Shown piece after piece: positions 4,299 to 57,526 of a stretch of 64,000 nucleotides of DNA. Every line of letters begins with the position of its first letter. Position 1 is the stretch's first letter. A program made the position numbers and the translations under genes. The DNA is from an uncultured Bdellovibrionales bacterium (GTDB taxonomy: Bacteria; Patescibacteriota; Minisyncoccia; Moranbacterales; UBA9337). Location: contig CAZSCV010000003.1 in the NCBI GenBank assembly GCA_964605525.1, positions 4,227-68,226 on the forward strand, in the 5' to 3' direction. Below the pieces are notes generated by a model. It saw only the letters and a list, made by a program, of their open reading frames with translations, was not told the origin of the DNA and searched no databases.

Positions 4299-4301
4299 AT
4301 T

Positions 4302-18942: not shown

Positions 18943-19227
18943 ATGTATTACGTGTATATTCTATATAGTGAAAAACTTAAAAAGAGATATATTGGATATT
19001 GCAGTGATTTAGGGAGGCGAATAAAAGATCACAATGAAAGAAGGGTAGTTTTTACATCAAGAGGTGTTCCGTGGAAAATAATTTATTATGAGGTTTTTGG
19101 AAGTAAGAGTGATGCACAAAGGGAAGAAAAATTTCTAAAAACAGGAAAAGGCAGGGATAGAATTAAATTTTTATTGGAGGATACGATGAAGAAAATAAAT
19201 GGAAGAATTCTAGGATCATCTGAATAA
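18943..19227 (+). CDS. GIY-YIG nuclease family protein (short, stand-alone)
   Basis: N-terminal YVYILYS...YIGYCSDLGRRIKDHN is the GIY-YIG motif. It is a paralog of the 56123-56413 ORF. Confidence 0.8.
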   Translation: MYYVYILYSEKLKKRYIGYCSDLGRRIKDHNERRVVFTSRGVPWKIIYYEVFGSKSDAQREEKFLKTGKGRDRIKFLLEDTMKKINGRILGSSE

Positions 19228-39888: not shown

Positions 39889-42800
39889 ATGATTAAAATT
39901 AAGGATAGATTTTTAATCCTCATATTCCTGATGGTTGCTTGTGGATTAATATTCGGAACGAAAGCGAGTGCTGAAGTTAAAATACTGTCGGACTCACGTC
40001 ATGCCTACACTACTATTGTCAGCACTATAAATATGTTGCTTGGCGTTGGGCATGTTGGTACGGATGTGATAGTTCACAGTACTAATATGGGTACCTTGGG
40101 ACCATTTTCCACATCTTCTTCTATCGCCCTTAATTCATCCACGAATTATTATAATGAATCTGGAAATTTGGTGCCTTCGCAAGCCCCTTATCAACTGTTT
40201 ACAACTTCAGCAACAAACTATATTGGAGACACTGCTTCAGAATATGACTTATCGATTTCTAATGATTTGGCTCATAATTATGCTTATAGTGCGGCACTAC
40301 CGCAAAGTACTTTTCCCCCGATATTTCATATGGCTCCAGGAAGGGAGGGTGGTACTACGGGTTATGGAGTTGAGTGGAGATTGGATTGCACTGTGTTTAG
40401 TTGCAGTTCATTGTCCGGAATAACAGCTGCCAATGCCGGATTAATGGCATCCCTTCGTTATCTTCATCCTACTTGGAATTGGTTTGATGTGAAAGCGGCA
40501 TTGCGTCAGACTGGTACAAACTGGAACACTGGTTATGATCGCAATGCTTTTGGATTCGGACAAATTGATTATCACGAAGCTGATATTTTGGAAGATGATC
40601 AAATATTTTTGCAACCTCCGGTAGCAAAAATAGATACTGTATATACACAGTCTATAAGATTTCAGCTTTATCCTTTCAAACAAACACGCAGAGTCAAAGA
40701 TGTATTATTTCAATTTTCTTCAGCTCCGTCTTTTTATGGAGATGAATTGACGCTTGCTGAGTTAGAGATGTTGGGTGGCACTAAAATTACGGAATATTCT
40801 GGCGATGTTTCCCGAATGATTCAACCTTTGGATATTGCAGTAGTGAATGCTTATTTTGTTTGGTTGACGGCTGATAATATTGATGATGATTTGGCGAATT
40901 TTTCTCGCATTGATACTTATGGAATTTTAGGACCTTTGAGTCAATCTTCGGTGCGGATTGGAGGTGCATTTTCGGAAATTTCGGATGCAAACAGTGTAAC
41001 TGATGTTTTGGTGGACGAACAAAATGGAAAAATATATACCGTTGAGCGAACAGTAGATGGTAATGGTAGTATCGTTCGTATGGATGAAGGAGTGGATGGT
41101 TCTGTGTTTGGTGCCAATCCTTCAGATTTTTCGCAAATCGTATTAAGAACTCCTTCTCAAGCGGTACTGGATAGCATTAATAATAAGGTATATATTACCG
41201 ATTCTGGTAATAGTCGAATTGTTAGTGTGAATAGTGGTACGGGTGGCACGGTTTTTGGTGAAAATTGGGAATCTTTCGGTTCGGAGGGTTCTGGAGATGG
41301 TCAAGTTAGTTATCCTTTCGGAATTTCCGTAGACGGTGCTAATAATCGGTTATATGTTGCGGATGTTAATAATAGCCGAATTGTCAGTATGGATAGCGGT
41401 ACGGGTGGCACGGTTTTTGGTGAAAACTGGGAATCTTTTGGCTCAGAGGGTTCTGGAATTAATCAATTCTTGTATGCTTCTGGAATTTTTGTTGATAGTG
41501 CTAATAGTAAGGTTTATGTGAGTGATTATGGTAATAATCGCATTGTCAGTGTGGATAGTGGAGAAGGTGCTACTACATTAGGAGGAAACTGGAATGAATT
41601 TGGTACATATGGTTCAGGGGTTGGACAATTTGATATTCCAGATGGAATATATGTAGATACTTTCAATAATAAGATATATGTTTCTGATTTTTTTAATACT
41701 CGCATTGTTAGTATGGATAGTGGCGGCGGTGGCACTACGATGGGGAGTAATTGGAAGGAATTTGGTGATTCCGGCGTAGGAGCGGGTCAATTTTTGGCAC
41801 CTAGCGGTATTTTTTCTGATAGGGTTAATAATAAATTGTATATTGTTGATTCTTCATCTAACCGTGTGGTAAAAATTGACAGTGGTGAAGGGGGCACTGT
41901 CTTGGGTGGTAATTGGCAAGTTTTTGGAAGTTCAGGATCGGGAAGTGAACAGTTCAACAGTCCATTTTATATTTTCGGTGATAATGTCAATAATAGAATT
42001 TATGTCGGTGATTCAGGTAATGATCGTATTGTTGGAATAGATTCCGGAGAGGGTGGTACTGTGCTGGGAGAAAATTACGCATCAATTCCAATTGCGCCAT
42101 TTGGAGTGTCTAATCAAGTCGCATTGGACAATGAAAATAATAAATTGTATGTGGCTGATAGCGGAAATGATAATATTATGAAGATAGATAGTGGAGGAGG
42201 AGAAACTACCTTGGGCAATGTATTGGAGACATTCGGTGAGCATGGTTCACCAGAAGAAGGATTGTTTTTAGAACCTGATGGTATCGTGGCAGATAGTGTT
42301 AGTAATCGGTTATATGTTGCTGATTCCGGACATGATCGTATTATCAGTATGGATAGCGGAGAAAGCGGGACCGTTCTTGGAGAGAATTTGCAATTATTTG
42401 GCGTGCTTGGATCGGGAGTAGGACAATTTAATAATCCTACTGGAATTGCTGTGGATAATTCGAACGATAAAATATATATAGTCGATAATAGTAACCATCG
42501 CATCGTCAGTATGGATAATGGAGAAAATGGAACTGTTTTAGGTGAAAATTGGCAATCTTTCGGATCACTTGGATCAGGATCTGATCAATTTCGATTTCCG
42601 GAAGACATATTCTTTAGCGATGACAAACTATATGTAGCCGATACTGATAATAATCGCATCGTTATCATTGATAGTGGCAGTGATTTCACGAGTTTCGGTG
42701 CTAATTTCAATTCTTTTGGTGTATATGGTGATGGAAGTAGTGAAGGACAATTTAATAATCCGACTAGCGTTTCTGTGGATGCGCAAAAAAAAATTATCTA

Positions 42801-44997
42801 TGTTGTTGATTCAGGTAATGGACGTATTGTGCAGATTATTCCTCCAATTATGATTATTGGTCAGAGCCAGAATGATTATACATTGCAAAACCAGGTTATC
42901 GATTGTTCGGCGGATGAGGAAGTGGGAGTTTATGTTCAGTCGGGATTAGAAGGGACGAATTTTAATAATGTGACTTTTCTTAATTGCGGTATTAGCGCTA
43001 TATTACTCAGAAGTGAACTTTCTCAATCTAATAATTTATTGTTTGTCAATAATGCAAGTGCGGTTCAAGATGAGGTTGGTGGGTATACTTGCACCAATTG
43101 TTTTGATGACTCGGAGGATGGCGAATCTAATGTTCTTGCTTCAGGACAGCCTGATTGGAATTCTCCAGCCATAGACACTGGTATTACTGTTGTAGGAAGG
43201 GATGTTGATTATGCCGGAAATTCTATTTATGGCACTCCCGATATCGGAGCCTATGAATACCAACCGCCATATGAAATGGGAACGGACGAAGTGGATATTT
43301 CCGCCAATGTTCGGATTTATGGGGATGGGAAATTTCGAAACACTGAAACGGCCAGTGGAATTACGGCTAGCCTTTCTATTATTCCGCAGGGAAGCGGGAC
43401 AGAGAAATGGCTGGATATTACCAAGGCTGATGACGAAGAAGCGATTATTTGGGAAGCTAACCGCAAAAAATGGAAAGAATCTTCCACTACTCTCGGAGAA
43501 AATAGTACACTTCATACAATTGAAGATTTAACTGCGGGAAAATCATACACTCTTGCTATTGATGGTTCGTTAGTAAGCGAAGATCCGATGACTGGAAATA
43601 TTACCAGCTCTGATTGTATTGATAGTGCCTGCGTTGCTGATGATACTGGAGAAATCACCTTTAATTATATAGGAGGTTATTCCGATCACACATTTGAATT
43701 GACAGATAATGTTGCTCCAGTGATTACTGTTACTTCTCCCGTATCAGGAAGCGCTGTTTCGGCTGATGATACTATAACTTTCACCGATTCCGAAACCACT
43801 GATCCGGAGTGTTCCATAGACAATTCCAATTGGGTCAATTGCGTTAGTACTGTAACCAGTTTTTCCGACCTCACCAACTGGGATGACATCGCAGAAAGTG
43901 ATACCTTCACTTTGTATATGCGAGATACGGATGCTTCCAGTAATACCGGAACAACAAATGTTTCCAATCTCACCAAAGCCGACACCCAAGCCCCGGTGCG
44001 CTCGGAAGGTTTGCCTAGCAGTGAATTATCTTCCGGCACAACTTCCACAACATTAAGCCTCACTACCAGCGAAACAGCCACTTGTAAATATTCCAACACC
44101 CCCGGTACCGCTTATGCCGATATGACCGAATTATTTACAACGGAAGATGGCATTATTCATACCAAAGATATTTCCAATCTTTCCGATGGTAGTTCATACA
44201 GCTATTATGTGAGATGTCAGGATTTATCCGAAAATGCTAACGACACCGATTATCTTATTAGTTTTTCAGTAGCCAGTCCGCAAGATGTCGAAGAAGATAC
44301 TGATGAAGAAAAGGATCTTGATATTCATGGTGTTAAGGCGGAATCTACGGAAAATTCTATTACAATAACCTGGAAAACCGACCATAACACCAAATCAAGT
44401 ATTCGATATGGAGTAGATAGGAATCTCAAGGAAAAGAAAAAGGACAATAGTAAAGAGAAAAAACATAAAATCGTTATTGATGGATTGCAGTCAAATGTAA
44501 AATATTATTTCCGCATAAAAGCCACGGATAGCAACGACAATGAAGATTCAAGTAAAATTCATTCAATAATGACTAAAGCTACTCAAATTTCAATTACAAA
44601 TCAAAGTCAGGATGAAAATACAAGCCAGTCTTCAGCAGAGAACACGAATGAGTCAGTATATTCCGATAATTCAACTCCCAATATCTGCTCATACACAATC
44701 CAATCCGGCGACACTCTTTGGTCAATTGCCAAACAAGTCTATGGCGATGCTACTCAATACCAAAAAATCATTGAGAAAAACCAAGACAAATATCCCGATA
44801 TTGAAACAAAATTATCCATTGGGCAGGAATTATCTTTCGGTTGCGAAAACGATGATTCGAAAAATGACATAGAAAAGAATCTGGAATTAAGTGTGCCTAA
44901 TAACAATATTGAACCGCAACCCCAAATTAAAACAGAACCTAAGAATAATTCTTCTGAAAAAGTATTCAAGTGGTGGAATCCGTTTAGCTGGTTTTGA
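39889..44997 (+). CDS. giant secreted surface protein: N-terminal subtilase-like remnant, about 12 NHL repeats, Ig/FN3-like region and a C-terminal LysM domain
   Basis: Signal peptide. The repeated unit is N.(K/R)(I/L)YV(A/S)DSGN.RIV..DSG.GGT..G; a FN3-like block (ITITWKTD...YYFRIKATD); LysM (YTIQSGDTLWSIAKQVYGD...). Confidence 0.8.
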   Translation: MIKIKDRFLILIFLMVACGLIFGTKASAEVKILSDSRHAYTTIVSTINMLLGVGHVGTDVIVHSTNMGTLGPFSTSSSIALNSSTNYYNESGNLVPSQAPYQLFTTSATNYIGDTASEYDLSISNDLAHNYAYSAALPQSTFPPIFHMAPGREGGTTGYGVEWRLDCTVFSCSSLSGITAANAGLMASLRYLHPTWNWFDVKAALRQTGTNWNTGYDRNAFGFGQIDYHEADILEDDQIFLQPPVAKIDTVYTQSIRFQLYPFKQTRRVKDVLFQFSSAPSFYGDELTLAELEMLGGTKITEYSGDVSRMIQPLDIAVVNAYFVWLTADNIDDDLANFSRIDTYGILGPLSQSSVRIGGAFSEISDANSVTDVLVDEQNGKIYTVERTVDGNGSIVRMDEGVDGSVFGANPSDFSQIVLRTPSQAVLDSINNKVYITDSGNSRIVSVNSGTGGTVFGENWESFGSEGSGDGQVSYPFGISVDGANNRLYVADVNNSRIVSMDSGTGGTVFGENWESFGSEGSGINQFLYASGIFVDSANSKVYVSDYGNNRIVSVDSGEGATTLGGNWNEFGTYGSGVGQFDIPDGIYVDTFNNKIYVSDFFNTRIVSMDSGGGGTTMGSNWKEFGDSGVGAGQFLAPSGIFSDRVNNKLYIVDSSSNRVVKIDSGEGGTVLGGNWQVFGSSGSGSEQFNSPFYIFGDNVNNRIYVGDSGNDRIVGIDSGEGGTVLGENYASIPIAPFGVSNQVALDNENNKLYVADSGNDNIMKIDSGGGETTLGNVLETFGEHGSPEEGLFLEPDGIVADSVSNRLYVADSGHDRIISMDSGESGTVLGENLQLFGVLGSGVGQFNNPTGIAVDNSNDKIYIVDNSNHRIVSMDNGENGTVLGENWQSFGSLGSGSDQFRFPEDIFFSDDKLYVADTDNNRIVIIDSGSDFTSFGANFNSFGVYGDGSSEGQFNNPTSVSVDAQKKIIYVVDSGNGRIVQIIPPIMIIGQSQNDYTLQNQVIDCSADEEVGVYVQSGLEGTNFNNVTFLNCGISAILLRSELSQSNNLLFVNNASAVQDEVGGYTCTNCFDDSEDGESNVLASGQPDWNSPAIDTGITVVGRDVDYAGNSIYGTPDIGAYEYQPPYEMGTDEVDISANVRIYGDGKFRNTETASGITASLSIIPQGSGTEKWLDITKADDEEAIIWEANRKKWKESSTTLGENSTLHTIEDLTAGKSYTLAIDGSLVSEDPMTGNITSSDCIDSACVADDTGEITFNYIGGYSDHTFELTDNVAPVITVTSPVSGSAVSADDTITFTDSETTDPECSIDNSNWVNCVSTVTSFSDLTNWDDIAESDTFTLYMRDTDASSNTGTTNVSNLTKADTQAPVRSEGLPSSELSSGTTSTTLSLTTSETATCKYSNTPGTAYADMTELFTTEDGIIHTKDISNLSDGSSYSYYVRCQDLSENANDTDYLISFSVASPQDVEEDTDEEKDLDIHGVKAESTENSITITWKTDHNTKSSIRYGVDRNLKEKKKDNSKEKKHKIVIDGLQSNVKYYFRIKATDSNDNEDSSKIHSIMTKATQISITNQSQDENTSQSSAENTNESVYSDNSTPNICSYTIQSGDTLWSIAKQVYGDATQYQKIIEKNQDKYPDIETKLSIGQELSFGCENDDSKNDIEKNLELSVPNNNIEPQPQIKTEPKNNSSEKVFKWWNPFSWF

Positions 44998-48599: not shown

Positions 48600-49673
48600 A
48601 TGGGCAAGAATAATACTGTTAAAAAACGTATCGCCGTGATTTTTGGCGGGCGATCGGGCGAACATGAGGTGTCCTTGAAATCAGCTCATCAGGTAATAAA
48701 TGCTCTTGATAAGAATAAATACGAAATTATTCCTGTGGCGATAACCAAAGTCGGTTATTGGCTGGTCGGGGAAGGGGAAAAGGGACGGAAATATTTGGAG
48801 GATAATTTAGAAAAGGCTGATCATGAGGGTGGAGTAGAGAGTGGCGACATATCGGAATGTTGTAGTAAATTTCCGGAAAAATTCCCATCGGTTGATTTAG
48901 TATTGCCAATTATGCATGGCACATTCGGAGAAGATGGAAAATTGCAAGGAATGCTTGAGATGTTGGGACTGCCATATGTTTTTTCCGGAGTTTTGGCGAG
49001 CTCCCTGGCGATGAATAAAAGGAAAACTAAAATTATTGCAAAAGCTTCTGGTCTTAAAATCGCGAAAGACGTCATAGTTATTAGGGGTAAAAAATTTAAT
49101 GCGGAGAAAATCATTGCCAAATTAAATTTTCCAATTGTCATCAAGCCGAGTGAGTTAGGTTCATCGGTCGGAACTAGTTTGGCTAACTCCAAAGAAGAAT
49201 TGGAAAATGGAATTGAAGAAGCTTTTAAATATGGAGATGAAATTCTGCTCGAACAGTTCATAAAAGGACGCGAACTGACAGTGGCGGTGATGGGAGATAA
49301 ATCTCCAAAAGCTCTTCCTGTCATTGAAATTATTCCGAAAATTTCTGGCTGGTTTGATTATCGCGCTAAATATGAAGCAGGCGGTTCGCAGGAAGTTTGT
49401 CCGGCTGAAATTTCAGAAGAAATTCGAAAAAAAGTTCAACGCTATGCTGTCAAAGTTTTCAAAGCGGTGGGATGCCTTGATCTTGCCCGGGCAGATTTTA
49501 TTTGGAGCGTCGAAGATGGCAAATTATATTTTCTCGAAATCAATACTATCCCCGGCATGACCGCCACAAGCCTCGCCCCGCAAGCAGCAGCCGCCGCCGG
49601 AATGGAGTTTTCGGTTTTTTTGGACAAATTAATTGAGGGAGCAATAAAAAGAAACAAAAAAATACAGGGCTAA
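48600..49673 (+). CDS. ddl: D-alanine--D-alanine ligase
   Basis: KKRIAVIFGGRSGEHEVSLKSA with ATP-grasp motifs (PNSLGLM... on the opposite strand aside) and C-terminal EINTIPGMT. Confidence 0.9.
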   Translation: MGKNNTVKKRIAVIFGGRSGEHEVSLKSAHQVINALDKNKYEIIPVAITKVGYWLVGEGEKGRKYLEDNLEKADHEGGVESGDISECCSKFPEKFPSVDLVLPIMHGTFGEDGKLQGMLEMLGLPYVFSGVLASSLAMNKRKTKIIAKASGLKIAKDVIVIRGKKFNAEKIIAKLNFPIVIKPSELGSSVGTSLANSKEELENGIEEAFKYGDEILLEQFIKGRELTVAVMGDKSPKALPVIEIIPKISGWFDYRAKYEAGGSQEVCPAEISEEIRKKVQRYAVKVFKAVGCLDLARADFIWSVEDGKLYFLEINTIPGMTATSLAPQAAAAAGMEFSVFLDKLIEGAIKRNKKIQG

Positions 49674-49941
49674 CCCTGTATTTTTTAAAATGCTCCGAAG
49701 CCTGGAAGAAGTCAGAACCTATTTCAAAAAACAAGAAGTGAACAATTGCCACAGTGACGGATTGGGTTAATTAACCTCGAGCAGCCTAATTGCCACTTGT
49801 TTGGCCGTGTGTCGAATGATTGAAGAGTGATGGCGGAATTGCCCAGTATTGAAGAATTTGTAGAACCTTACGCAAAATTTAAGAGCCCTGCCAGTCGTTC
49901 GACCAGCAGGGCTCATAATACGTTCATGTACTTTTTTCAGG

Positions 49942-50661
49942 TTACTGTTCCATGGTGGCACACAGGCGCGCCCAGTTTTTCTTCACCTCGAGTTCGAGAC
50001 GACCTGCTTCGATGTCAGCGACAACTGCGGGGTCATCCTGCTCGTATTCCAGATACGCTTCACGAATGGAGGCGATGACGGGCAGACCCTTGTAAGTCGT
50101 GTCGTAAATCGGAGATCGGTTGAATGCTCCGACGAGGAGCACGATGTTTACCCCGGTCACAGCGATTTCCGCCAGGGTATTATCGGTATTCTGGAAGTTG
50201 TTGTAAACGTCTTCCGCGATCGCGACACGTTCGCCCTGTTCAAAATCGAACTGCGAGAGGTCCCAACTGTATTCTTGTTTCTTGCCAACCTCGGTCGGTT
50301 TCGGTTTCTTGTCCGCATATGCGAACCGCTTACCAGCAACGAGCGCAAGCATCTGACCGAATGTCCGACCACCTTGCGGGATTCCGCAGATAGTATCGAA
50401 CGAGTCGAGTAAGTCCTGATCGCAGAGTTTCTGATATGCCGCCTCGGCAAACGCCTCAACAGCTTTCGGATGGACTTCAATCCTCCGAAAGTTGAAGTAG
50501 ATGTCTCCGACGAGGTTTCGTCCCTTGGCGTCTTTTCCCGCATAGACGACCAAAGGTCCCTTACGTTGAGAGCCGACTTTCGGACAAACATATACAGCGC
50601 CGCAGCGCTTTCCAAGCTCCAGAAGGTCTTCTCCTGGATACGGAACAATAAAATTCGACAT
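49942..50661 (-). CDS. orotate-phosphoribosyltransferase-like protein with a degenerate PRPP loop, in a GC-rich island
   Basis: Type I PRTase architecture (GIPQGGRTFGQMLAL ... GERVAIAEDVYNNFQNT in place of VxxDVxTTGGS). Local GC is about 50% against about 33% in the flanks. Confidence 0.5.
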   Translation of the reverse strand: MSNFIVPYPGEDLLELGKRCGAVYVCPKVGSQRKGPLVVYAGKDAKGRNLVGDIYFNFRRIEVHPKAVEAFAEAAYQKLCDQDLLDSFDTICGIPQGGRTFGQMLALVAGKRFAYADKKPKPTEVGKKQEYSWDLSQFDFEQGERVAIAEDVYNNFQNTDNTLAEIAVTGVNIVLLVGAFNRSPIYDTTYKGLPVIASIREAYLEYEQDDPAVVADIEAGRLELEVKKNWARLCATMEQ

Positions 50662-50870
50662 TTTCTTCCTCCTTTTCGGTTATACTTCACTCAAAAAAAC
50701 TTCACCCCTTGCCAATAATCCTCCTTTCGAGAAATTTGATAACTAACTTATATATAAATTTTTATTCTTTTTTCAAGGTTCAAAAACTGCCTAAAAAAGC
50801 AGTTCCTTATAATAACAGGTATTCATATTTATGCAATATAAGGGGGCTTTAAATTCTTGAATTTATTTTT

Positions 50871-50927
50871 AAAGCAAAATTTTCGAACCGATATAATAGC
50901 GCAAAAGAGCCTTAGTAAGGCTCTTTT
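50871..50927. repeat. diverged copy a of the same repeat, beside the PRTase-like GC island
   Basis: TTCGAACCGATATAATAGCGCAAAAGAGCCTTAGTAAGGCTCTTTTGGAATG. Confidence 0.6.
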
Positions 50928-50984
50928 GGAATGATGCCATGAAGTCCGGAGGCAGGCAGGGTCACTTTGGGAAAATAAATAGTC

Positions 50985-51371
50985 CTAATCTAGTTGGTTT
51001 ATCTGTATTAGATTTCCACAGGTGTCATTAAACACCGCAATCGTTGATCCCGTCACTTTTGTTGGCTCCATGGTAAAGGATACGCCCAATTCCTTCAATT
51101 TTTCATATTCTTTTTGGATATCATCGACAAAAAATGCCGTAGCTGGTATGTTTTGTTCAAAAATAGCTTTCTGATATATTTTGGCGGCAGGATTTTCGTT
51201 GGGTTCGAGAAGAAGCTCGGTCCCATCCGGCTGTTCGGGAGAAACAACGGTTAGCCACCTATATTCTCCAGCAGACACGTCATTTTTTTTCACAAAACCT
51301 AAAACTTCCGTATAGAACTCCAGCGCTTTTGTCTGGTTGTCTACAAACACGCTGGTCACTTTGATTTTCAT
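50985..51371 (-). CDS. VOC (glyoxalase/bleomycin-resistance) family protein
   Basis: KALEFYTEVLGF at the N-terminus and a paired beta-alpha-beta-beta-beta module. Confidence 0.75.
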   Translation of the reverse strand: MKIKVTSVFVDNQTKALEFYTEVLGFVKKNDVSAGEYRWLTVVSPEQPDGTELLLEPNENPAAKIYQKAIFEQNIPATAFFVDDIQKEYEKLKELGVSFTMEPTKVTGSTIAVFNDTCGNLIQINQLD

Positions 51372-51401
51372 AAGATTAATGCGTTATTTGAATTATTTTA
51401 T

Positions 51402-51674
51402 TTATTCCCCATCATAGGCTTTTTGCAATTCCACCATGTTTATTTTCTTCATTTTAAGCACGGCTCCCATGACTCTTTCAGTTTTGTCTTGATCTCGAAG
51501 CATTTTTTCGATAGTATCCGGAACAATTTGCCAAGAAAGACCGAAGCGATCTTCTAAATTTATTACAAAAACCCACACGAATAATTGCATATTTTTAGGT
51601 ATCCTTAATCCTGATAAGGAAACATTAATGGAAAAACCGAAAAAGACCACGGGTATTGCCAATGATATTTGCAA
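51402..51674 (-). pseudogene. 3' remnant of a PhnB-like VOC family gene
   Basis: Only the C-terminal roughly 50 aa (DRFGLSWQIVPD...AVLKMKKINMVELQKAYDG) match the PhnB family C-terminus. The N-terminal part of the ORF is unrelated. Confidence 0.4.
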
Positions 51675-51876
51675 GGATTTAAAAAGTGGATTGGCTCAAA
51701 AGCCGATATAATGCTTTGTCTTTATTATGTGGAGGTTGGCATGAAATACACCTATACTTACGGCGATATCAATGAACCTTTTTGTGCCCGCATGAATAAA
51801 GGGGGTCAGGTACCTTTTTTGTTTTAGTGCATAGCAAGGATGATCCCCAACTAATCTTATCAACGAACTCCGCAAA

Positions 51877-52689
51877 TCATTTACTGCTAAAATTTGTCAG
51901 AATAACGACTTCTTTCTCATGGATATGTCCATCTTTTTCGTGTCTTTTGACAAAAAACTTCCTTGCACTTTCTTTGATTTCATCCGACATATCATGCAGA
52001 TGCCGCATGCCTATCCACTCCAAGACCAGATTGCCGTTTTTATTAAGGATATTGCCTCTTGTCAAAACACCGGAAAATATCGTATCAAATTTTTTGACTT
52101 TGATCCTATGTGCGCTAAGCCCGCTCAGTAACGAATCAATTTCATTCCTTGATGACCCATATTGATCGTCGGTTATTTTTTTAAGCCCGCCCAAAAAAGA
52201 ATTTGCGTCATTCACCACGAAAACTGCGACTCCATCCCTTTTAAGCATTTTTCTTATCTTATCCAGATATGAGTTATTTCTAAAGGTATAGATACTATGG
52301 ATAAGAAAAATGATGTCATATTTGCTCTGGGTGGAAAATTTTTCGAAAGTACTCTTTTTTGTGACAATGGGATACTTTTTCTTGGCCGATTCCCCAATGC
52401 AGTTTTTTATAAATTCTTCTGAAGGCTCCACCAGATCAGCTTCGGCAATTATTTCTTTTTGTTTGAATAAATCAAGAAGATGCCTAAGTCGCTTGCCATC
52501 ACCGCCACCGACATCCAATATCTTTAGTTCTTTTTTATTTCTAATTTCAGGATAGACAATATCAAAAACACTAAGAATCAATGAATCTTTTTTGCCATAA
52601 AGTATGTTTTTGAATTCGTTGTATTTACGGGCTCCTTCCGAGGAATTCAAATAATCCAAGTACTGTTTCTTTACATCTTTCATAAACAA
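51877..52689 (-). CDS. class I SAM-dependent methyltransferase
   Basis: Motif I LDVGGGDGKRL plus motif II/III spacing. Confidence 0.7.
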   Translation of the reverse strand: MFMKDVKKQYLDYLNSSEGARKYNEFKNILYGKKDSLILSVFDIVYPEIRNKKELKILDVGGGDGKRLRHLLDLFKQKEIIAEADLVEPSEEFIKNCIGESAKKKYPIVTKKSTFEKFSTQSKYDIIFLIHSIYTFRNNSYLDKIRKMLKRDGVAVFVVNDANSFLGGLKKITDDQYGSSRNEIDSLLSGLSAHRIKVKKFDTIFSGVLTRGNILNKNGNLVLEWIGMRHLHDMSDEIKESARKFFVKRHEKDGHIHEKEVVILTNFSSK

Positions 52690-52717
52690 AGTCTAATACT
52701 TTATTGTGCCCTTGTCT

Positions 52718-52786
52718 AATGTTTGAGCCTGTTTTATAGCAAAAAAGAGCCTTCCTTTGGCTCTTTTGAGATTTGCTCCGCGAGCT
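52718..52786. repeat. copy b of a roughly 65-bp hairpin-containing direct repeat, 5' of the pyrF-like gene
   Basis: AATGTTTGAGCCTGTTTTATAGCAAAAAAGAGCCTTCCTTTGGCTCTTTTGAGATTTGCTCCGC. Confidence 0.75.
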
Positions 52787-52945
52787 CAAATCTATTCGAA
52801 CCTATTCCAATAGTTAAGCACGCCTGGATTAGAAAATATTCGAACTTTACAGATTAAGTCTCATATACTTGCTTTTTATGTCTAAACCTGTACAATCTAT
52901 GCAGGTAGAAATGGGAGTTAGGCATGGGGCTTAACTCTTCAGTTA

Positions 52946-53698
52946 TTGCACAATCTCAATCAGGGAGGCATTATGGACTCAGGGAGAACGATTTGGGCAG
53001 CATTGGACACAGACAAGAGAAAGGCTCTACAGATCGCAAAAACCATTGCTTCACATCCGGCAATTTTCGGCTTCAAAGTCAACCGTTTGATCGATCAGGA
53101 GGTTTTCCGTAAAGACGGCGAACCGGCCTTGTTCGAAGAGCTGGCACAGCATGGTCTTCCGATCTGGGTTGATCTGAAACTGTTCGACATCCCCAGGACT
53201 GTCGTCGAAAGGCTCATGCCGTATATCCAATCAGGATACGTTCAGTTCATCACTGTTATGGCCAAGGGCGAGGTCGACATGATGGCTGACGGTGTTGCTG
53301 CGATGGGCGACAAAGGAAACATCATCGCCGTCACCGAACTGACATCATTTTCCGAAGAACAAGTTCACCTCGGGAGTGGTCATCCCTCAAAGGCATCCGT
53401 AATCAATCTGGCTCGCATCTCTGTACTGGCTGGAGTACGTTATATGGTCTGTTCCTCTCAGGAACTGGGGGTGTTGAAAAGTCGGAGGGAATTGGTTTCC
53501 CTTCGCAAGTTCGTTCCGGGGATAACTCCCGACTGGAAAAAGGGAGAAAACCAGCCGGGTCAGAAACGAGTCGGTAGTCCTGCCTTTGCTCTCAGCGGAG
53601 GTGCAGACAAAATCGTCATCGGCGGAGCGATCGTCAACGATGCTGATCCCCTGGGAGCAGTCGAAAAGACGGCTCAGGAAATTGAAGCCATCGACTGA
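52946..53698 (+). CDS. orotidine-5'-phosphate decarboxylase family protein (PyrF-like), GC-rich
   Basis: ALDTD, FKVN, VDLKLFDIPRTV (DxKxxDIP) and C-terminal GADKIVIGGAIVNDADP. The true start may be M at 52973. Confidence 0.65.
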   Translation: MHNLNQGGIMDSGRTIWAALDTDKRKALQIAKTIASHPAIFGFKVNRLIDQEVFRKDGEPALFEELAQHGLPIWVDLKLFDIPRTVVERLMPYIQSGYVQFITVMAKGEVDMMADGVAAMGDKGNIIAVTELTSFSEEQVHLGSGHPSKASVINLARISVLAGVRYMVCSSQELGVLKSRRELVSLRKFVPGITPDWKKGENQPGQKRVGSPAFALSGGADKIVIGGAIVNDADPLGAVEKTAQEIEAID

Positions 53699-53725
53699 AA
53701 TCACAATCACTATTTGTCATCAAGA

Positions 53726-53767
53726 AGCCGAAAGTTCGCAGTGCGAACCGTAGGCTTTTTTATTTTT
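53726..53767 (+). terminator. intrinsic terminator after the pyrF-like gene
   Basis: AAGCC..GTTCGCAGTGCGAAC..GGCTT followed by T6. Confidence 0.65.
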
Positions 53768-53792
53768 TGTAAAATAAAAGAGTTAATGCAAT

Positions 53793-53861
53793 CAATGTTC
53801 GAACCTGTTTTATAGCACAAAAAGAGCCTTCATTTGGCTCTTTTGAGATTTGCTCTGCTGA
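53793..53861. repeat. copy c of the roughly 65-bp direct repeat, 3' of the pyrF-like gene
   Basis: AATGTTCGAACCTGTTTTATAGCACAAAAAGAGCCTTCATTTGGCTCTTTTGAGATTTGCTCTGC. Confidence 0.75.
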
Positions 53862-54003
53862 ATTGTTGTATTCAGAACTGAAATCGCTCAAATTAGCCGG
53901 GGATTTGAACTTGTTTTTGAAAACTTTTGCACTCCAATAAAAAAAACGACCCGCTCTATATAAGCAACGGGTCGCACATCTTGAATCTACTTGCTGAACA
54001 CTG

Positions 54004-54528
54004 TCAGCTCAGGAAGTCCACGCCAGCCTTCCTCTCTTCATCGTTTTCGTAAGCGTTGTGGGCCAGTCCGACGATAACATCGGCTATCATACCGGAAATC
54101 ATCTTGTCGAACCAGGGTTGAACGCCGGAACATGTCACGACGATACCCCGCCTTTTGACGCCGCCCCAGTAAGGTGTGTCATCTGAGAACAGCAGATGCG
54201 GAATAGGCATTGTGCGGTCATCGTTCCTGTCGGTCCAAAGCTGAAGCGCCTTGCACCGAGCAATGTTATCATAGGGATGTTCCCAACCCTCTTCTTTGCC
54301 GAGACTGTGCTCATAAAGAGACACAGCCTGAAGCGGATAGTTGGGCCAGTCAGGATAGTCGGCCTCGCGGTCGTCCTTCATGCCGGGCACCAGTATGACA
54401 ATGTGGCACTGCACCCGCTTGAGTAAGGGACGAAGTAGCGACGAATCTCCCATGACTGCGCCAAGAACTGCCTCGACTGCTTTACGTGCATCTTCCTCGG
54501 TGAGATACTTTGGTGTAATCAACTTCAT
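54004..54528 (-). CDS. hypothetical protein (GC-rich island, no recognisable family)
   Basis: 174-aa ORF at about 52% GC with strong codon periodicity. Confidence 0.45.
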   Translation of the reverse strand: MKLITPKYLTEEDARKAVEAVLGAVMGDSSLLRPLLKRVQCHIVILVPGMKDDREADYPDWPNYPLQAVSLYEHSLGKEEGWEHPYDNIARCKALQLWTDRNDDRTMPIPHLLFSDDTPYWGGVKRRGIVVTCSGVQPWFDKMISGMIADVIVGLAHNAYENDEERKAGVDFLS

Positions 54529-54546
54529 GTGTTCCTCCTTTGTCGG

Positions 54547-55908
54547 TTATTTCATTGCTTCGAGGATGCTTTCCTCGGTTTCTTTCTTTTCGGCTTGATG
54601 AACTGCATCCTCAGCATCTCTCTTTTCCCTTTCTGCAATCAGTTCGCGAACTTTTTCTACGAGTTCCTGGTCATCCGCGAACTCCTCAAGCATCTGGCCT
54701 GCCGCACGCCTCGTCTCCGCATCGTATACATGGAATCTTCCATATTCTTCCACATTTTTGATGACGGCGTATCTGGCGATTTTGTGCCGAAGCTCTTTAA
54801 AGGAGTCTGCGGACAAAAGCTCGAAGAAGTTGATAACATTGAAGGCATCGATCAGATGTTTGTTTGACTGAAGATTATCCACGAGGAACTGCACCTGCTC
54901 AATGAAGAACTTCTTGGAGTAGTGTAGGCCGTAGAACTGCATCTGAATGAAACTGGAATAGCAGCGCAGAGCGTCTTCATGCTCTTCTCTGGGCTTTGCT
55001 TTTCCTTCGATCTCGGCACGCACTATATCTCGCATCTTCCCGTCGGCCAACCTTTTCCATTTCTCATTGATGTCGTCGGAGTACATGAGGTTCCGGAAAG
55101 GATTGTATCCTGAAGCAAAATCCATATTCCAGAACGTTGAGATGTCATTAAGGGAATACAGCGGAAATATTTTTTCTGCCTGCTCAGCAGGAAGCTTTGC
55201 AAGCAGTTTCAGGATGCAGTGGTTGTAGAAGTGCAGCGCATCATGATATTTGTCGGGTATCGACATGTACACCATAATACCACCGCCACCTTCGGCAACA
55301 TTCCTCGGCCGATCGCAATGCATCGGACTCAGCGCAGTTACAAACTGTGTGATAAGCTCCGATACGTAACTCAGTAGATCGGGAGTCAGCTTGTCGAGGA
55401 TGTCTGACCTGTGATAAAACTTGCCAATATCTCCTTTCCAGTAAAGCGGGTTCACTGCAGCCGAAGGCACCATTAGCAGAAACAGTGCCCGCTTCTTGAA
55501 ACTATCGTTCACCTGCTGGGAAAGAAGATCGAGCAAGTCCCTTACTTCTCTGGACTTGAAGTCGACCCATTTTTTCCATTTCATATCTTCTTCCGTGGGA
55601 AACCACTTGCTTCTAAGTCTCTTGAGTAAAAACATCAGTCTTTCCATGATTTCTTCCTCCTGTGCTGTTTGCTCGTCAGACGGCTTCCAATGCCGTCCTT
55701 TTTTGGCTCTCCATCCCTGTCTCTTTTCCCGAAGCTCGTAAAGAAAGACGACTTCTCCAGGTTCCGGGTGCCCATGCTCCTGCCACACATTACGCTCCAA
55801 AGAGAACGTAACCGAGCCAGTGAACACCTGTGTGGTCGCAATGGCATACGGCCCGTGCGGTCCCACTGGAACAACTTTTTCAACTATGGCTTTTATGCCT
55901 TTTTCCAC
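54547..55908 (-). CDS. hypothetical 453-aa protein (GC-rich island, no recognisable family)
   Basis: Long ORF at about 50% GC. An N-terminal small beta-rich segment (VVPVGPHGPYAIATTQVFTGSVTF) is followed by a helical domain. Confidence 0.5.
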   Translation of the reverse strand: MEKGIKAIVEKVVPVGPHGPYAIATTQVFTGSVTFSLERNVWQEHGHPEPGEVVFLYELREKRQGWRAKKGRHWKPSDEQTAQEEEIMERLMFLLKRLRSKWFPTEEDMKWKKWVDFKSREVRDLLDLLSQQVNDSFKKRALFLLMVPSAAVNPLYWKGDIGKFYHRSDILDKLTPDLLSYVSELITQFVTALSPMHCDRPRNVAEGGGGIMVYMSIPDKYHDALHFYNHCILKLLAKLPAEQAEKIFPLYSLNDISTFWNMDFASGYNPFRNLMYSDDINEKWKRLADGKMRDIVRAEIEGKAKPREEHEDALRCYSSFIQMQFYGLHYSKKFFIEQVQFLVDNLQSNKHLIDAFNVINFFELLSADSFKELRHKIARYAVIKNVEEYGRFHVYDAETRRAAGQMLEEFADDQELVEKVRELIAEREKRDAEDAVHQAEKKETEESILEAMK

Positions 55909-56059
55909 GCTTTTCTCACCTCCTTTCGCATTGAGTTTTTAAAGGTCAACTGACGATAAATAATAATATGAACTAGTGCAAAAGTCAAGGGGCTGTAGAG
56001 TTACCCGAATTCAAACCCCAAAGCCCCTTTTTCCGGTGAGTGTGAATATTTGTGTTAAA

Positions 56060-56092
56060 AACAATTAAAAAACCCTCCAAACAGAGAGGGTC
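56060..56092 (-). terminator. intrinsic terminator downstream of the minus-strand GIY-YIG gene
   Basis: The reverse strand reads GACCCTCTCTGTTTGGAGGGT followed by T6. Confidence 0.6.
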
Positions 56093-56122
56093 ATTTTACC
56101 AAAGAATTTCTGATCATTTGTT

Positions 56123-56413
56123 TCAAACTGCTTTTTCCTTTGCTGGTTTTGAAGTATTTTCTTTAAAATAATGTCGCAGTTGTTTTTTGAGATATGTTCG
56201 ACCGGAACCACCCTTGAGAAATTTTTCTCGTCCGACCGCATCAGCTTTATTGAGATATGCTTCGTAATAAATTAATTTCCAATTTTTCTTCAAAGAAGTT
56301 GTTCTGCATCCATATCCTCTTTGATGATCATTAACTCTGGTTTTCAAATCATTAGTATATCCAATATACCAAGAATTATCATTTTGACACTCTAATAAAT
56401 AGGCGTAATACAT
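56123..56413 (-). CDS. GIY-YIG nuclease family protein (short, stand-alone)
   Basis: MYYAYLLECQ...WYIGYTNDLKTRVNDHQ. It is a paralog of 18943-19227. Confidence 0.8.
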   Translation of the reverse strand: MYYAYLLECQNDNSWYIGYTNDLKTRVNDHQRGYGCRTTSLKKNWKLIYYEAYLNKADAVGREKFLKGGSGRTYLKKQLRHYFKENTSKPAKEKAV

Positions 56414-56566
56414 GATTTTAAATTAGTGAATTATGTTTTAATTATACAGTAAAAAAAGACCTGTCGCGCCACGAAAAATGGCTTCGCCATCTCGTGGCCA
56501 CGAAAAACTTACAAAAAAGGTGGAGTTATATAGTTTTGTAAAATATGGCGGCGCCACGAGATGAAA

Positions 56567-56598
56567 AAAAGACTATCCCGTCAGGGTAGTCTTTTTTG
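56567..56598 (-). terminator. hairpin terminator immediately 3' of the split tRNA
   Basis: AAAGACTA-TCCCGTCAGGG-TAGTCTTTTTT. Confidence 0.6.
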
Positions 56599-56648
56599 AG
56601 TTTTTCGTGGCTCCGACGGTAGGATTCGAACCTACGACCAAGTGATTA

Positions 56649-57211
56649 CACTCTTGGCAAGTGGACTATATCATTCTCTCATAATTTTATAACAATGAGA
56701 GATTGGGCGCTTTTTGGAAGATTATTGTTGGGACTCACTTCCTAGTCTCTACACCTTTCCCGAGAATTAAAACCCGTCGGGACTTGGCTCGGTATTAGAG
56801 TGGCTCTCCTTCACCGAATTCACCCAATTTTTCGATCAGAGTCACCTCTGAAAGCTGCCTAGCATGGACTTCTATGTGACAATTACTGCATAATAAAATG
56901 CATTTGTCTAACTCAGATTTTACTCGATCCCATGACCGAGTATATCCTTTCTCTGAGACACCGAAATCTTTTGCTGCAGGTTCCAAATGATGAAAAGCAA
57001 GAGCGTTTTCACATTTGTTGTATCCGCATATTTGACAAGCACCTCCTTTATATTGGAGAGATTTCTTCTTGATATCCTTTCTTCTTTTATCAACAAAAAA
57101 TTTGCTTTTGCATTGCGGACTACAGAACCTGCGCCGTGGTTTTACATTTTTTGTACAAATTTTCCAAGCACATTTCATATGCTATATTATACAAAAATAT
57201 AAGCCAAATTG
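56649..57211 (-). mobile_element. candidate self-splicing (group I-like) intron or invasive insertion in tRNA-Asn, carrying an HNH endonuclease ORF
   Basis: The 5' exon ends in U and the insertion ends in G. TTGGC near the 5' end is complementary to GCCAA near the 3' end. There is an internal 8-bp hairpin (TCTCTCAT...ATGAGAGA) and a same-strand ORF. Confidence 0.45.
56795..57178 (-). CDS. HNH endonuclease
   Basis: CxxC...CQICGYNKC...AFHHLEP...CSNCH gives the HNH zinc-finger nuclease motifs; 127 aa. Confidence 0.8.
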   Translation of the reverse strand: MKCAWKICTKNVKPRRRFCSPQCKSKFFVDKRRKDIKKKSLQYKGGACQICGYNKCENALAFHHLEPAAKDFGVSEKGYTRSWDRVKSELDKCILLCSNCHIEVHARQLSEVTLIEKLGEFGEGEPL

Positions 57212-57526
57212 ACAGTCACCTGCGCTACCACTGCGCCACGTCGGAATATATTCTATTTTTAAACGACACAATCCCATTATATAGAAAAAGAAAAATAAAT
57301 CAAGGGTTTGTATTGGAAAAGCGTATCGTGGATAATTCTTGATATTTTTTGAAACAAAATAAATATCCAAGCAGTAATAATAAAAAGCAATGGATTAATG
57401 GGTGATGTTTTGCAAATAATTTGTTTTTTATATATAAAATCTTAACTTTCGGCTGTAATTCAGCCGACGGAAAATAAGCAATCTGACAAATTTCAATATA
57501 TTTTAATCATTAATTCACACAAAAAT

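Follow-up and report, generated by a model that had tools for sequence, protein, structure and literature searches.

Introduction

Genomic islands use tRNA genes as integration targets, and pieces of tDNA remain at the island ends (PMC4383910). Asn tDNAs are recognised hot spots, Klebsiella pneumoniae being one example (PMC4891358). Decayed elements that have kept their att sites accrete in tandem; the cis-mobilizable elements (CIMEs) of the Streptococcus ICESt1/ICESt3 family are reviewed in PMC5704250. Introns at position 35/36 of Patescibacteria tRNA-Asn, which standard tools miss, have also been described (PMC13011429).

The locus analysed here lies in a 64-kb stretch of DNA, called the window in this text, which holds, at 49.7–56.6 kb, a four-cassette array behind a tRNA-Asn gene. 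A preliminary description had reported a repeat in three copies (a, b, and c) near GC-rich genes. Its observation was partly confirmed and its interpretation partly supported. Related loci are given L numbers.

The Split tRNA-Asn Gene

The upstream end of the array is a split tRNA-Asn gene, whose orientation is common to all units.

56610–57245, minus strand: tRNA-Asn(GTT) gene, split by a 563-nt intron (sequence read, and ARAGORN on the joined exons)
57212–57245, minus strand: tRNA-Asn(GTT) exon 1, ending in ...GGTGACTGT at anticodon-loop position 35
56649–57211, minus strand: intron of 563 nt at tRNA-Asn position 35/36, carrying an HNH endonuclease ORF (56795–57178)
56610–56648, minus strand: tRNA-Asn exon 2, TAATCACTTGGTCGTAGGTTCGAATCCTACCGTCGGAGC (sequence read)
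56565–56597, minus strand: hairpin directly behind the live tRNA-Asn, head of cassette 1, terminator-like in a simple scan

The exons, joined in silico, gave a 74-nt tRNA-Asn(gtt) cloverleaf in ARAGORN. The intron looks group I-like from its sequence: the last base is U in the 5′ exon and G in the intron, and a GATATAGTCC motif is present. Its ORF matched PHROG HNH endonuclease families (E = 9e-27), and the intron itself showed no match to Rfam even at E ≤ 1. The exon junction, CTGT followed by TAA, was found in the window, in L020/L029, and in L005. Both the ARAGORN and the Rfam scans missed the intact split gene. Because the intron hides the anchor tRNA from such standard scans, island finders based on tRNA annotation will miss hot spots of this kind. 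The hairpin behind the gene is unlike the hairpin of copies a, b, and c. The split gene had escaped the preliminary description, as had a decayed tRNA-Asn 3′ half beside copy b and a fourth, partial unit.

Cassettes and Their Cargo

On the minus strand, the order is tRNA-Asn, cassettes 1, 2, 3, and 4, a last relic, and the chromosome.

53852–56609, minus strand: cassette 1 (ORFs, Pfam, GC), with a small GIY-YIG gene (56123–56413), an unknown 453-aa gene (54547–55908), an unknown 174-aa gene (54004–54528) with its own terminator, and tail fragment c at the end
52775–53851: cassette 2 (pyrF-like), 1077 bp, limits from blastn against L026 and a five-way alignment, with head c, the pyrF terminator (about 53727–53752), an OMP-decarboxylase-like gene (52973–53698, plus strand), and a tail (52775–52818)
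50933–52774, minus strand: cassette 3 (ORFs, Pfam, GC 0.372), with head b, a SAM-methyltransferase-like gene (51877–52689), a small ORF, a glyoxalase-family gene (50985–51371), and the degenerate tail a
49692–50877, beyond head a, minus strand: cassette 4, with an orotate-PRTase-like gene (49942–50661) and tail fragment d

The cassettes measure 1.1–2.8 kb and hold one to three genes each. Three of the four have a GC content of 0.45–0.47 against 0.38 for the window, and cassette 3 is host-like. The OMP-decarboxylase-like gene matched Pfam OMPdecase at 3e-26, and its matches to the NCBIfam pyrF models stayed under the cut-offs. It is oriented opposite to the other cargo, and besides its own terminator hairpin the cassette contains its promoter and a conserved 5′ leader. 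The promoter-like TTGCTT-N16-TACAAT was seen by eye and was not among the calls of the simple scan. The orotate-PRTase-like gene (GC 0.525) gave weak PRTase/pyrE matches in Pfam and NCBIfam. Four independent assemblies are identical over the window sequence, so an assembly chimera is unlikely as the origin of this arrangement.

The Three Repeat Copies

The reported repeat is real. Its copies lie on one strand at 50878–50928 (a), 52718–52782 (b), and 53795–53859 (c), and the plus-strand pattern AAAAGAGCC-N7-GGCTCTTTT matched only at 50903, 52743, and 53820, with 0.01 matches expected from shuffles. A profile built from the three copies found no further full copy in the 64-kb window, and all three are confined to 3 kb, at a single locus and in a single orientation. 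The conserved cassette head makes up most of the 65 bp. The heads listed below were read from the sequence, the profile, and the alignment.

53795–53851, minus strand: copy c without its tRNA-end bases, head of the pyrF cassette; spacer AAATCTC, hairpin 53820–53844, then GTGCTAT-AAAACA-GGTTCGAAC-ATT
52718–52774, minus strand: copy b without its tRNA-end bases, head of cassette 3; spacer, hairpin 52743–52767, then TTGCTAT-AAAACA-GGCTCAAAC-ATT
50878–50932, minus strand: copy a, head of cassette 4; hairpin 50903–50927, then GCGCTAT-TATATC-GGTTCGAAA-ATT

On the minus strand, each copy runs from the terminal bases of a decayed tRNA-Asn 3′ end through a spacer of 7 nt and a hairpin of 9 bp to GTGCTAT-N6-GGTTCGAAC-ATT. 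Copies b and c were identical in 59 of 66 aligned columns (89%, reported as about 90%). They form direct repeats 1077 bp apart, close to the reported 1.1 kb, around the OMP-decarboxylase-like gene and its terminator. Copy a was about 75% identical to either and adjoins the PRTase-like gene, in line with its earlier description as a diverged copy; its 5′ flank is closer to the copies in L002, L017, and L023 than to b or c.

Several details of the preliminary description required correction. The hairpin formula AAAAGAGCCTT-N4-AAGGCTCTTTT fitted copy a only, and there with N3; b and c have a 9-bp stem, AAAAGAGCC/GGCTCTTTT, with a 7-nt loop. The GAGATTTGCTC said to follow the hairpin was found in b and c and not in a, and the TTCGAACC said to precede it was found in a and c, while b has TTTGAGCC. 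The claim that the repeats mark off GC-rich genes held at copy a, between the PRTase-like (GC 0.525) and glyoxalase (0.408) genes, and at copy b, between the methyltransferase (0.355) and pyrF (0.518) genes; it failed at copy c, which has a GC-rich gene on either side. The divergent setting of copy b was confirmed, with the methyltransferase on the minus strand, its start codon 29 nt from the copy end, and pyrF on the plus strand.

The copies might instead belong to a common family of intrinsic terminators, possibly bidirectional, whose nearness to GC-rich genes is incidental. The hairpin has an A-run ahead and a T-run behind (its 4–5 T's are part of the stem) and a folding energy of −14 to −16 kcal/mol, and copy a lies 58 nt past the glyoxalase stop codon. 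The same stem also occurs as a lone terminator-like hairpin in unrelated bacteria, among them Alistipes, Chryseobacterium, and Oscillospiraceae. Against this, a common family is poorly matched by three copies in 64 kb, and conserved sequence extends beyond the hairpin by about 25 nt and 15 nt on its two sides. No obvious transcript ends at b or c. Copy b follows no gene, and copy c lies between genes that each have their own terminator. The a/b/c hairpin was absent from the terminator-like calls of the simple scan. The true homologues found outside the window all abut a tRNA-Asn gene or fragment, and the check for a genome-wide terminator family thus went against it. We rejected the generic-terminator reading, which copy count, extended conservation, placement, and tRNA-Asn linkage make very improbable.

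tRNA-Derived Tails and a Fourth Relic

Each of the four units opens with a tRNA-like 3′ end; polarity is identical in a, b, c, and d, and the fragments lie on the minus strand, like the tRNA.

53852 to about 53911, minus strand: tail fragment c, ending in GCAGAGC (aligned, nhmmer)
52775–52818, minus strand: tail fragment b, a decayed tRNA-Asn 3′ half reading CTTAACTATTGGAATAGGTTCGAATAGATTTGAGCTCGCGGAGC
About 50933–50974, minus strand: tail fragment a, degenerate (nhmmer, weak)
49692–49724, minus strand: tail fragment d, AAATAGGTTCTGACTTCTTCCAGGCTTCGGAGC, part of a fourth, partial unit (nhmmer 49729–49681, E = 1e-4)
49657–49686, minus strand: hairpin d, AAAAAATACAGGG-TTAG-CCCTGTATTTTTT, behind the last tRNA-like fragment

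Tail fragment b spans the tRNA from the anticodon loop to the discriminator base and has 35 of 51 positions in common with a real tRNA-Asn 3′ half, a score reached by 0 of 2000 shuffles. Its acceptor strand, TCGCGGA, is that of the tRNA-Asn genes in L001, L002, L023, and L039; the window's own gene has CGTCGGA. Homologues of this tail were carried by the pyrF cassettes of L026, L037, and L039. A c-like tail was found behind another gene in L021 (83% over 155 nt), and the L026 tail was 80% identical to fragment d. Fragment a is too decayed to be identified as tRNA-derived on its own. In the fourth relic (49657–49724), the hairpin differs from that of a, b, and c; the array ends with it, and a convergent D-Ala-D-Ala ligase gene lies opposite.

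Related Loci and the Empty Site

At 83% DNA identity, the pyrF-like cassette was also found in three other metagenomic contexts, where its neighbours differ. L026 matched window positions 53855–52794 at 83% over 1070 nt, from the hairpin through the tRNA half, with both neighbours different; in L037 and L038 the cassette is again discrete among other neighbours. Head c is contiguous with pyrF in L026 (83% identity) and L037. In L039 the cassette lies directly behind an intact tRNA-Asn, downstream of dnaG-rpoD, between direct repeats that start at CGCGGAGCC. Its head there is different (TTGCAC...), and heads and cargo are therefore not rigidly linked.

L021, a contig of a near-identical strain, has a methyltransferase flank 97.4% identical to the window and one unit with a c-like tail, and it is the empty site for the pyrF cassette. 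The single repeat without a cassette, which the preliminary description had proposed to look for, thus exists. Together with the recurrence of the cassette elsewhere and the restriction of the repeat to one locus, it supports the suggested recombination or attachment role in cassette acquisition. The L021 unit is a mosaic, with a c-like base in the loop and a b-like 3′ part; this mosaic also fits a crossover inside the hairpin.

In L015 the same hairpin and block lie directly behind an intact tRNA-Asn, and in L020/L029 directly behind its 3′ exon. The earlier remark that a terminator has no obvious role here was not supported, since the hairpin is a module found directly behind intact tRNA-Asn genes in relatives (L015, L020). 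In other relatives an intact tRNA-Asn lies 1–2 kb upstream of the hairpin and block, and the interval holds cargo. Of these, L002 has a Fic gene, and L023 has a Y1 (IS200-like) transposase, followed by two units around one Fic gene.

The array of mostly single-gene cassettes and the L023 transposase could suggest MITE-like or REP-like miniature elements, or attC sites of an integron-like platform. In full units, the hairpin lies between palindromic GGTTCGAAC boxes that are readable as short terminal inverted repeats. Box 1, however, is the T-loop of the tRNA fragment, and the L023 transposase is flanked by its own, different hairpins, GTCGAGGACGGTCCTCGAC. The MITE reading, which the preliminary description had offered, was rejected: no terminal inverted repeats, target-site duplications, or dispersed copies were found, and the three copies sit at one locus in an orientation fixed relative to the tRNA. 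The attC reading was rejected as well, since the GGTTCGAAC boxes are unlike the RYYYAAC/GTTRRRY consensus, no such boxes, long imperfect palindrome, or IntI-type integrase match were found, the arms outside the 9-bp stem have no complementarity, a tRNA-Asn stands at the array head, and the cassettes carry their own promoters and terminators in both orientations. We regard this family of explanations as scarcely credible.

Search for a Recombinase

The preliminary description had called for a search for a cognate recombinase on the contig. No tyrosine or serine recombinase gene was found among the window ORFs tested (Pfam and precomputed annotations) or in the fetched parts of the related loci, no transfer genes were found at the array, and about 20 loci yielded no integrase-bearing element related to it. 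The recombinase enzyme is therefore hypothetical.

This result bears on a further explanation, in which the anatomy is the same and no site-specific enzyme acts. The conserved tRNA-Asn ends and hairpin modules would then be portable patches of homology, and strains would gain, lose, and exchange cassettes by taking up DNA, with subsequent RecA-type homologous recombination and unequal crossing-over between adjacent units. No recombinase turned up in the window or in any fetched locus, the window repeats are long enough (66 columns at 89%), and those of L039 comprise about 35 nt of near-identical and about 50 nt of diverged sequence. The L021 unit combines a c-like loop with a b-like 3′ side, and heads and tails seem to reassort, with another head on the L039 pyrF cassette and a c-like tail after a different gene in L021. 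On the other side, the two cassette ends in L026 and L037 have only GGAGC(A) in common, which is too short for homologous recombination, although their boundaries coincide to the nucleotide with those in the window. The exchange is thereby located at the 3′ end of the tRNA, and long homology seems not to be required. A tRNA half carried by the cassette and resembling the target is, moreover, the classical attP signature, and all units have one polarity relative to the tRNA. We consider exchange through homology patches possible, if unlikely.

Proposed Mechanism

The reading that we favour, and hold to be probable, is that small, integrase-less cassettes have accreted in tandem at the tRNA-Asn 3′ end and that the repeats are the junctions of this array. 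Each cassette consists of a head (7-nt spacer, 9-bp hairpin, GTGCTAT-N6-GGTTCGAAC-ATT), cargo of one to three genes in either orientation with their own promoters and terminators, and a tail formed by a decayed tRNA-Asn 3′ half ending in GGAGC. The 65-bp repeat therefore joins the last 7–9 nt of one tail to the conserved head that opens the following cassette, and copies c, b, and a are the heads of cassettes 2, 3, and 4. The sequences establish the anatomy of the array, its origin from a tRNA, the differences in cassette content between strains, and the occurrence of one cassette in several settings; the circular intermediate, the trans-acting recombinase, the precise crossover, and the terminator activity of the hairpin are inferences.

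In a circularised cassette, the joined tail and head would present a tRNA-Asn 3′ half followed by a terminator, the layout of the chromosomal target. Recombination at or beside GGAGC, by a hypothetical site-specific enzyme acting in trans, would place the cassette either behind the tRNA or at any of the tail/head junctions formed before. The crossover would thus fall at the edge of the repeat and not in the hairpin. The arriving head would supply a hairpin that may end transcription behind the tRNA or relic, the arriving tail would come to lie ahead of the previous head, and the present order may be the product of repeated rounds of insertion.

The tRNA-like tail stays with the cassette and the tRNA is not regenerated, which is unlike the textbook arrangement. 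Similar repeats of 72 nt (window) and about 85 nt (L039) would suffice for ordinary homologous recombination. Among the metagenome hits, the search pattern itself imposed the conservation of the hairpin stem.

A bolder version of the accretion reading, which we find doubtful, is that Moranbacteria/Parcubacteria-type Patescibacteria have an integron-like, tRNA-Asn-anchored system. The tRNA-half-like tail and the hairpin/GGTTCGAAC head of about 55 nt would serve as a portable attachment site, shuffled at tail/head junctions by a recombinase encoded elsewhere or by an unrecognised host enzyme. Housekeeping-type genes (pyrE-like, pyrF-like) would then move between lineages as single-gene modules.

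Single metabolic or toxin-type genes (pyrF-like, PRTase-like, Fic, methyltransferase) are swapped at one hot spot, with no visible integrase, in an ultra-small, host-dependent bacterium. A tRNA-Asn 3′ end, then a hairpin, then GGTTCGAAC can serve as a search signature for arrays in other Patescibacteria. A dedicated trans-acting recombinase, if it exists, would make this a new cassette-exchange system; otherwise, the array would be an ordinary tRNA-linked variable region in an unusual host.

Comparison with Known Systems

With tRNA-linked islands of the Islander type (PMC4383910), the array shares the anchor, an intact tRNA-Asn, same-orientation partial copies of the tRNA 3′ end at the cassette ends, atypical base composition, and strain-variable content with an empty site in a relative. 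It differs in that no integrase was found in or near it and in that its units are 1.1–2.8 kb with one to three genes, compared with roughly 10–100 kb. Its tRNA-like piece is decayed, travels as the cassette tail, and does not regenerate the tRNA; the crossover probably lies at the extreme 3′ end (GGAGC), and the anchor tRNA is split by a group I-type intron.

As in CIMEs and tandem accretion, att-like sites lie at both ends, a tail/head junction bounding each of the four cassettes. Integration and transfer genes were not found, units are stacked head-to-tail at one target, and new arrivals would insert at an existing att site. CIMEs, however, are decayed ICEs/IMEs in Firmicutes, and their integrase-bearing kin occur within the array or elsewhere in the species; a parent element of that kind was not seen here, and the host genome is that of a Patescibacteria (Parcubacteria/Moranbacteria-like). 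In the literature searched, we found no earlier description of the conserved head module of about 55 nt.

The Dehalococcoides ssrA islands (PMC3146451) likewise belong to a reduced genome, where they are arranged in tandem at a single small-RNA gene; they carry varied cargo and are a major source of strain-level diversity. About half of them have a syntenic integration module by the integration site, and they measure about 12 kb, whereas no integration module was found in the window and its cassettes are about ten times smaller.

Integron arrays, too, line up cassettes that mostly hold a single gene; a recombination-site-like element closes each cassette, and the recombinase, if any, acts in trans. 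The window has no IntI, attI, or Pc; its junction is tRNA-derived and not an attC palindrome, and its cassettes have their own promoters and terminators in both orientations, unlike the promoterless, one-orientation cassettes of integrons.

The window intron resembles the Patescibacteria tRNA-Asn group I introns (PMC13011429) in its 35/36 site and in the failure of tools to find the tRNA. The array is a small variant of the familiar tRNA-linked genomic island.

Organisation of the repeat array

The three hairpin-containing repeats that a preliminary description had placed beside the PRTase-like gene (copy a) and on either side of the pyrF-like gene (copies b and c) (copy a, 50878-50928; copy b, 52718-52782; copy c, 53795-53859) were found at those places, all as plus-strand matches. 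The pattern AAAAGAGCC-N7-GGCTCTTTT had three matches (positions 50903, 52743, and 53820), against a shuffled mean of 0.01, and a profile built from copies a, b, and c gave no additional full copy across the 64-kb window. Copies b and c were identical in 59/66 aligned columns, and copy a reached about 75% with either. The similar stretch has a length of 72 nt. Parts of the preliminary description were imprecise: b and c have a 9-bp stem and a 7-nt loop, GAGATTTGCTC comes after b and c only, and copy b is preceded by TTTGAGCC instead of TTCGAACC.

Read on the minus strand, each copy shows tRNA-like 3' end bases (GCGGAGC in copy b, GCAGAGC in copy c), a 7-nt spacer, the hairpin, and GTGCTAT-N6-GGTTCGAAC-ATT. 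We call the whole element the unit, its part from the spacer onwards the head, and the decayed tRNA-Asn 3' piece that closes a cassette the tail. Every unit has the same orientation as a tRNA-Asn gene at the start of the array.

Features of the array in minus-strand order
57245->56610, minus: tRNA-Asn
56597->56565, minus: terminator, sequence unlike the copies' hairpin
Within 56413->54004, minus: GIY-YIG gene, unknown 453-aa gene, unknown 174-aa gene (cassette 1)
Tail c, minus-strand end TTCAGCAGAGC
Head c
52973-53698: pyrF-like gene, inverted (cassette 2)
52818->52775, minus: tail b, tRNA half CTTAACTATTGGAATAGGTTCGAATAGATTTGAGCTCGCGGAGC; last bases GAGCTCGCGGAGC at 52787->52775
Head b
Within 52689->50985, minus: methyltransferase, small ORF, glyoxalase (cassette 3)
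Degenerate tail a
Head a
50661->49942, minus: PRTase-like gene (cassette 4)
49724->49692, minus: tail d, AAATAGGTTCTGACTTCTTCCAGGCTTCGGAGC
49686->49657, minus: different hairpin
D-Ala-D-Ala ligase gene, convergent

Tail b matched a real tRNA-Asn 3' half at 35/51 positions, and 0/2000 shuffles were as good. The GC content of cassettes 1 to 4 was 0.452, 0.470, 0.372, and 0.455, respectively (window 0.382). The 174-aa and 453-aa proteins, considered as candidate recombinases or defence proteins, had no match in Pfam, NCBIfam, PADLOC, or PHROGs.

The anchor tRNA-Asn and its intron

ARAGORN with the intron and pseudogene options on detected no tRNA near the repeats. In the whole window, ARAGORN and Rfam reported one tRNA, a tRNA-Ser, which was also the only Rfam match at gathering thresholds. 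The split tRNA-Asn was spotted by eye and confirmed via in-silico splicing. On the minus strand, 56610-57245 contains two tRNA-Asn(GTT) halves with a 563-nt insert between anticodon-loop positions 35/36 (between CTGT and TAA); after splicing, ARAGORN folded the halves into a cloverleaf of 74 nt, tRNA-Asn(gtt). The insert follows U, ends in G, contains GATATAGTCC, and is group I-like. Its ORF (56795-57178) encodes a 127-aa HNH endonuclease (PHROG E = 9e-27). Group I introns at exactly 35/36 in Patescibacteria tRNA-Asn, overlooked by standard tools, were recently described (PMC13011429), and the same split was seen in related loci L020/L029 and L005. Rfam did not recognise the 563-nt intron and gave zero matches at E <= 1 over 50.5-57.6 kb; the unit and the intron therefore belong to no known RNA family.

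Several other features were observed around this gene. Inverted copies GCCACGAAAAAC / GTTTTTCGTGGC lie on either side of the terminator behind tRNA-Asn (56468-56612), one of them abutting the tRNA 3' end, and a second pair nearby reads GCGCCACGA.../...TCGTGGC. Each window tRNA gene has a small neighbour that encodes GIY-YIG only: 94 aa at 18943-19227 (tRNA-Ser at 19313) and 96 aa at 56123-56413 (tRNA-Asn). Related loci L002, L023, L029, and L039 share the gene order dnaG-rpoD-tRNA-Asn. The window departs from it: dnaG (21321-23123) and rpoD (23212-24573) occupy the plus strand, and the minus-strand tRNA-Asn is 32.7 kb away, a layout that looks like an inversion of the stretch between them (24574-57300); both junctions were spanned by independent contigs (L031, L034). 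Behind tRNA-Asn, L023 carries an IS200-like Y1 transposase (3660-4420, 220 aa) with hairpins GTCGAGGACGGTCCTCGAC on either side, a layout that resembles REP-associated transposases. In L002 (~5100-5130) and L039 (~7740-7765), too, tRNA-Asn is followed by hairpins resembling these.

Homologues of the unit in other genomes

The hairpin scan of species-representative genome contigs returned mostly unrelated terminators of other phyla, and the only true relatives in this hairpin-only search were L001 and L002. L002 (Candidatus Moranbacteria) shares the flanks besides the hairpin, 1.25 kb downstream of its tRNA-Asn gene. In two Saccharibacteria matches the same stem is directly behind tRNA-Asn; L005 and L009 have the hairpin behind tRNA-Asn in common, but not the flanks. 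In L005 (Saccharibacteria, ~4923-5936), an intron likewise begins after the CTGT of the tRNA-Asn 5' exon, and the same AAAAGAGCC hairpin lies ~1 kb downstream. The tRNA-Asn/hairpin pairing thus reaches beyond Moranbacteria.

The metagenome scan used the hairpin plus a mandatory ATAGC flank and returned 17 loci, ~12 of them true homologues. What borders the hairpin in each true homologue is tRNA-Asn sequence: the complete gene in L015, the 3' exon in L020/L029, and otherwise a fragment whose last bases are GGAGC(C). Conservation of the stem and ATAGC is not evidence here, because the search pattern fixed both; it placed no constraint on the conserved GGAGC, spacer, and N6-GGTTCGAAC-ATT. Viral contigs scanned for the unit gave no match. 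An extra GTTCGAACC-like palindromic box was seen 25-35 nt past the GGTTCGAAC box in several relatives (L002 6396-6440; L015 ~246-290; L020 ~1163-1200; L023 4521-4560 and 5864-5900) and has no clear counterpart in the window copies.

Three other readings of the conserved block were dropped. A plus-strand mini-ORF MFEP[IV]L*, ending in ATAG before the hairpin, was prompted by two synonymous b/c differences, but its start codon is not preserved in copy a, L014, L017, or L021. A sigma-70 promoter within the block has neither conserved spacing nor a conserved -35 element; the good Fic promoter of L002 and L023 is situated past the block, on its downstream side. Against long-range pairing of the two GGTTCGAAC boxes, or an extended attC-like palindrome, the pairing fails to hold in b or c and the arms beside the stem are non-complementary.

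Evidence for movement of the cassettes

The pyrF cassette was found in several contexts. L026 matched window 53855-52794 with 83% identity over 1070 nt, a match spanning hairpin c, pyrF, and the tRNA half, with another tail and gene upstream and another hairpin and a Fic gene downstream. L037 and L038 (93% protein identity) have the cassette between still other neighbours. In L039, a Moranbacteria genome, it is directly behind an intact tRNA-Asn after dnaG-rpoD, and the tRNA end with ~35 nt downstream (CGCGGAGCC TTGCACTTTTTTATTTTGGG) recurs past the cassette's tRNA half. The segment common to a five-way alignment comprises the terminator, coding sequence, promoter with leader, and tRNA half. 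The tRNA halves of pyrF cassettes have the derived changes GGAATAGGTTCGAAT and GATTTGAGCT in common; the halves therefore travel with pyrF and have no fresh origin. In L026 and L037, GGAGC(A) is the sole sequence common to both cassette ends, which locates the exchange at the 3' end of the tRNA.

An empty site, as envisaged in the preliminary description, was found in L021, which has a single unit and lacks the pyrF cassette. Its identity to the window is 97.4% over block b and the beginning of the methyltransferase gene. Past the single unit come a c-like tail, 83% identical over 155 nt, and an upstream gene other than that of the window. This comparison points to insertion at an internal junction. 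Ordinary homologous recombination between conserved modules would account for the mosaic L021 unit too, and for the reassorted heads, cargo, and tails. Since no recombinase family was detected in any window ORF tested or in the examined parts of related loci, homologous recombination stays a serious rival.

The array design recurs in L023 with different cargo, in the order tRNA-Asn, Y1 transposase, unit, a single Fic gene, unit. The cargo most often seen behind a unit is a Fic gene. The ~75-nt 5' leader of the pyrF-like gene (52900-52972; CTATGCAGGTA...GGGGCTTAAC...CAGGGAGGCATTATG) is about as conserved as the coding sequence over five loci (window, L026, L037, L039, L040) and had no Rfam match. 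Contigs from Parcubacteria group bacterium Athens0714_25 (GCA_007376775.1) and from three other assemblies matched the window at 100% identity. In the GenBank MAG contig L010 (GCA_007376775.1 VMGV01000006.1), the sole difference is a 62-bp deletion (53052-53113) within the pyrF-like gene, which shifts the frame and leaves a 196-aa product. L012, a contig of another assembly, stops exactly at 53051; either strain heterogeneity or an assembly artefact would explain this.

The PRTase-like protein (49942-50661) is 77-90% identical among distant Patescibacteria classes (L043, L044, L045). Elsewhere its gene is paired with an adjacent OMP-decarboxylase gene, and in L043 a truncated tRNA-Val and an intact one flank the pair, beside a large serine recombinase. 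The window has its PRTase-like and OMP-decarboxylase-like genes in separate cassettes ~2.3 kb apart. In self-matches, the 1702-aa gene (39889-44997) showed internal 433-nt repeats (41178-41766; 73% identity, 162 nt out of register).

Proposed mechanism and comparison with known systems

Tandem accretion of small, integrase-less elements at the tRNA-Asn 3' end is the simplest reading of the locus, and one we consider fairly probable as a whole. Each element would carry an attachment site mimicking its target, with the tRNA-Asn 3' half as the tail and a tRNA-type trailer plus terminator as the head. Exchange near GGAGC would place an element behind the tRNA or at any older tail/head junction.

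This account fits two established pictures: tDNA fragments mark the ends of islands located at tRNA genes (PMC4383910), and elements lacking an integrase pile up via accretion (PMC5704250). Asn tDNAs are hot spots elsewhere (PMC4891358), and the ssrA islands of Dehalococcoides offer a parallel in a reduced genome (PMC3146451). The locus behaves as a hot spot for tRNA-linked islands, with accretion of the CIME type. Unlike tRNA-linked islands, it yielded no integrase among the ORFs tested. All defining features of integron attC sites are absent, as are those of MITEs, whose ends the preliminary description had offered as one option. Compared with the described cases, the cassettes are only 1.1-2.8 kb, and no integration module was found in ~20 loci. 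The array further differs in that the cassette carries a decayed tRNA half, the conserved head module is common to several Patescibacteria lineages, and the anchor tRNA is hidden by an intron.
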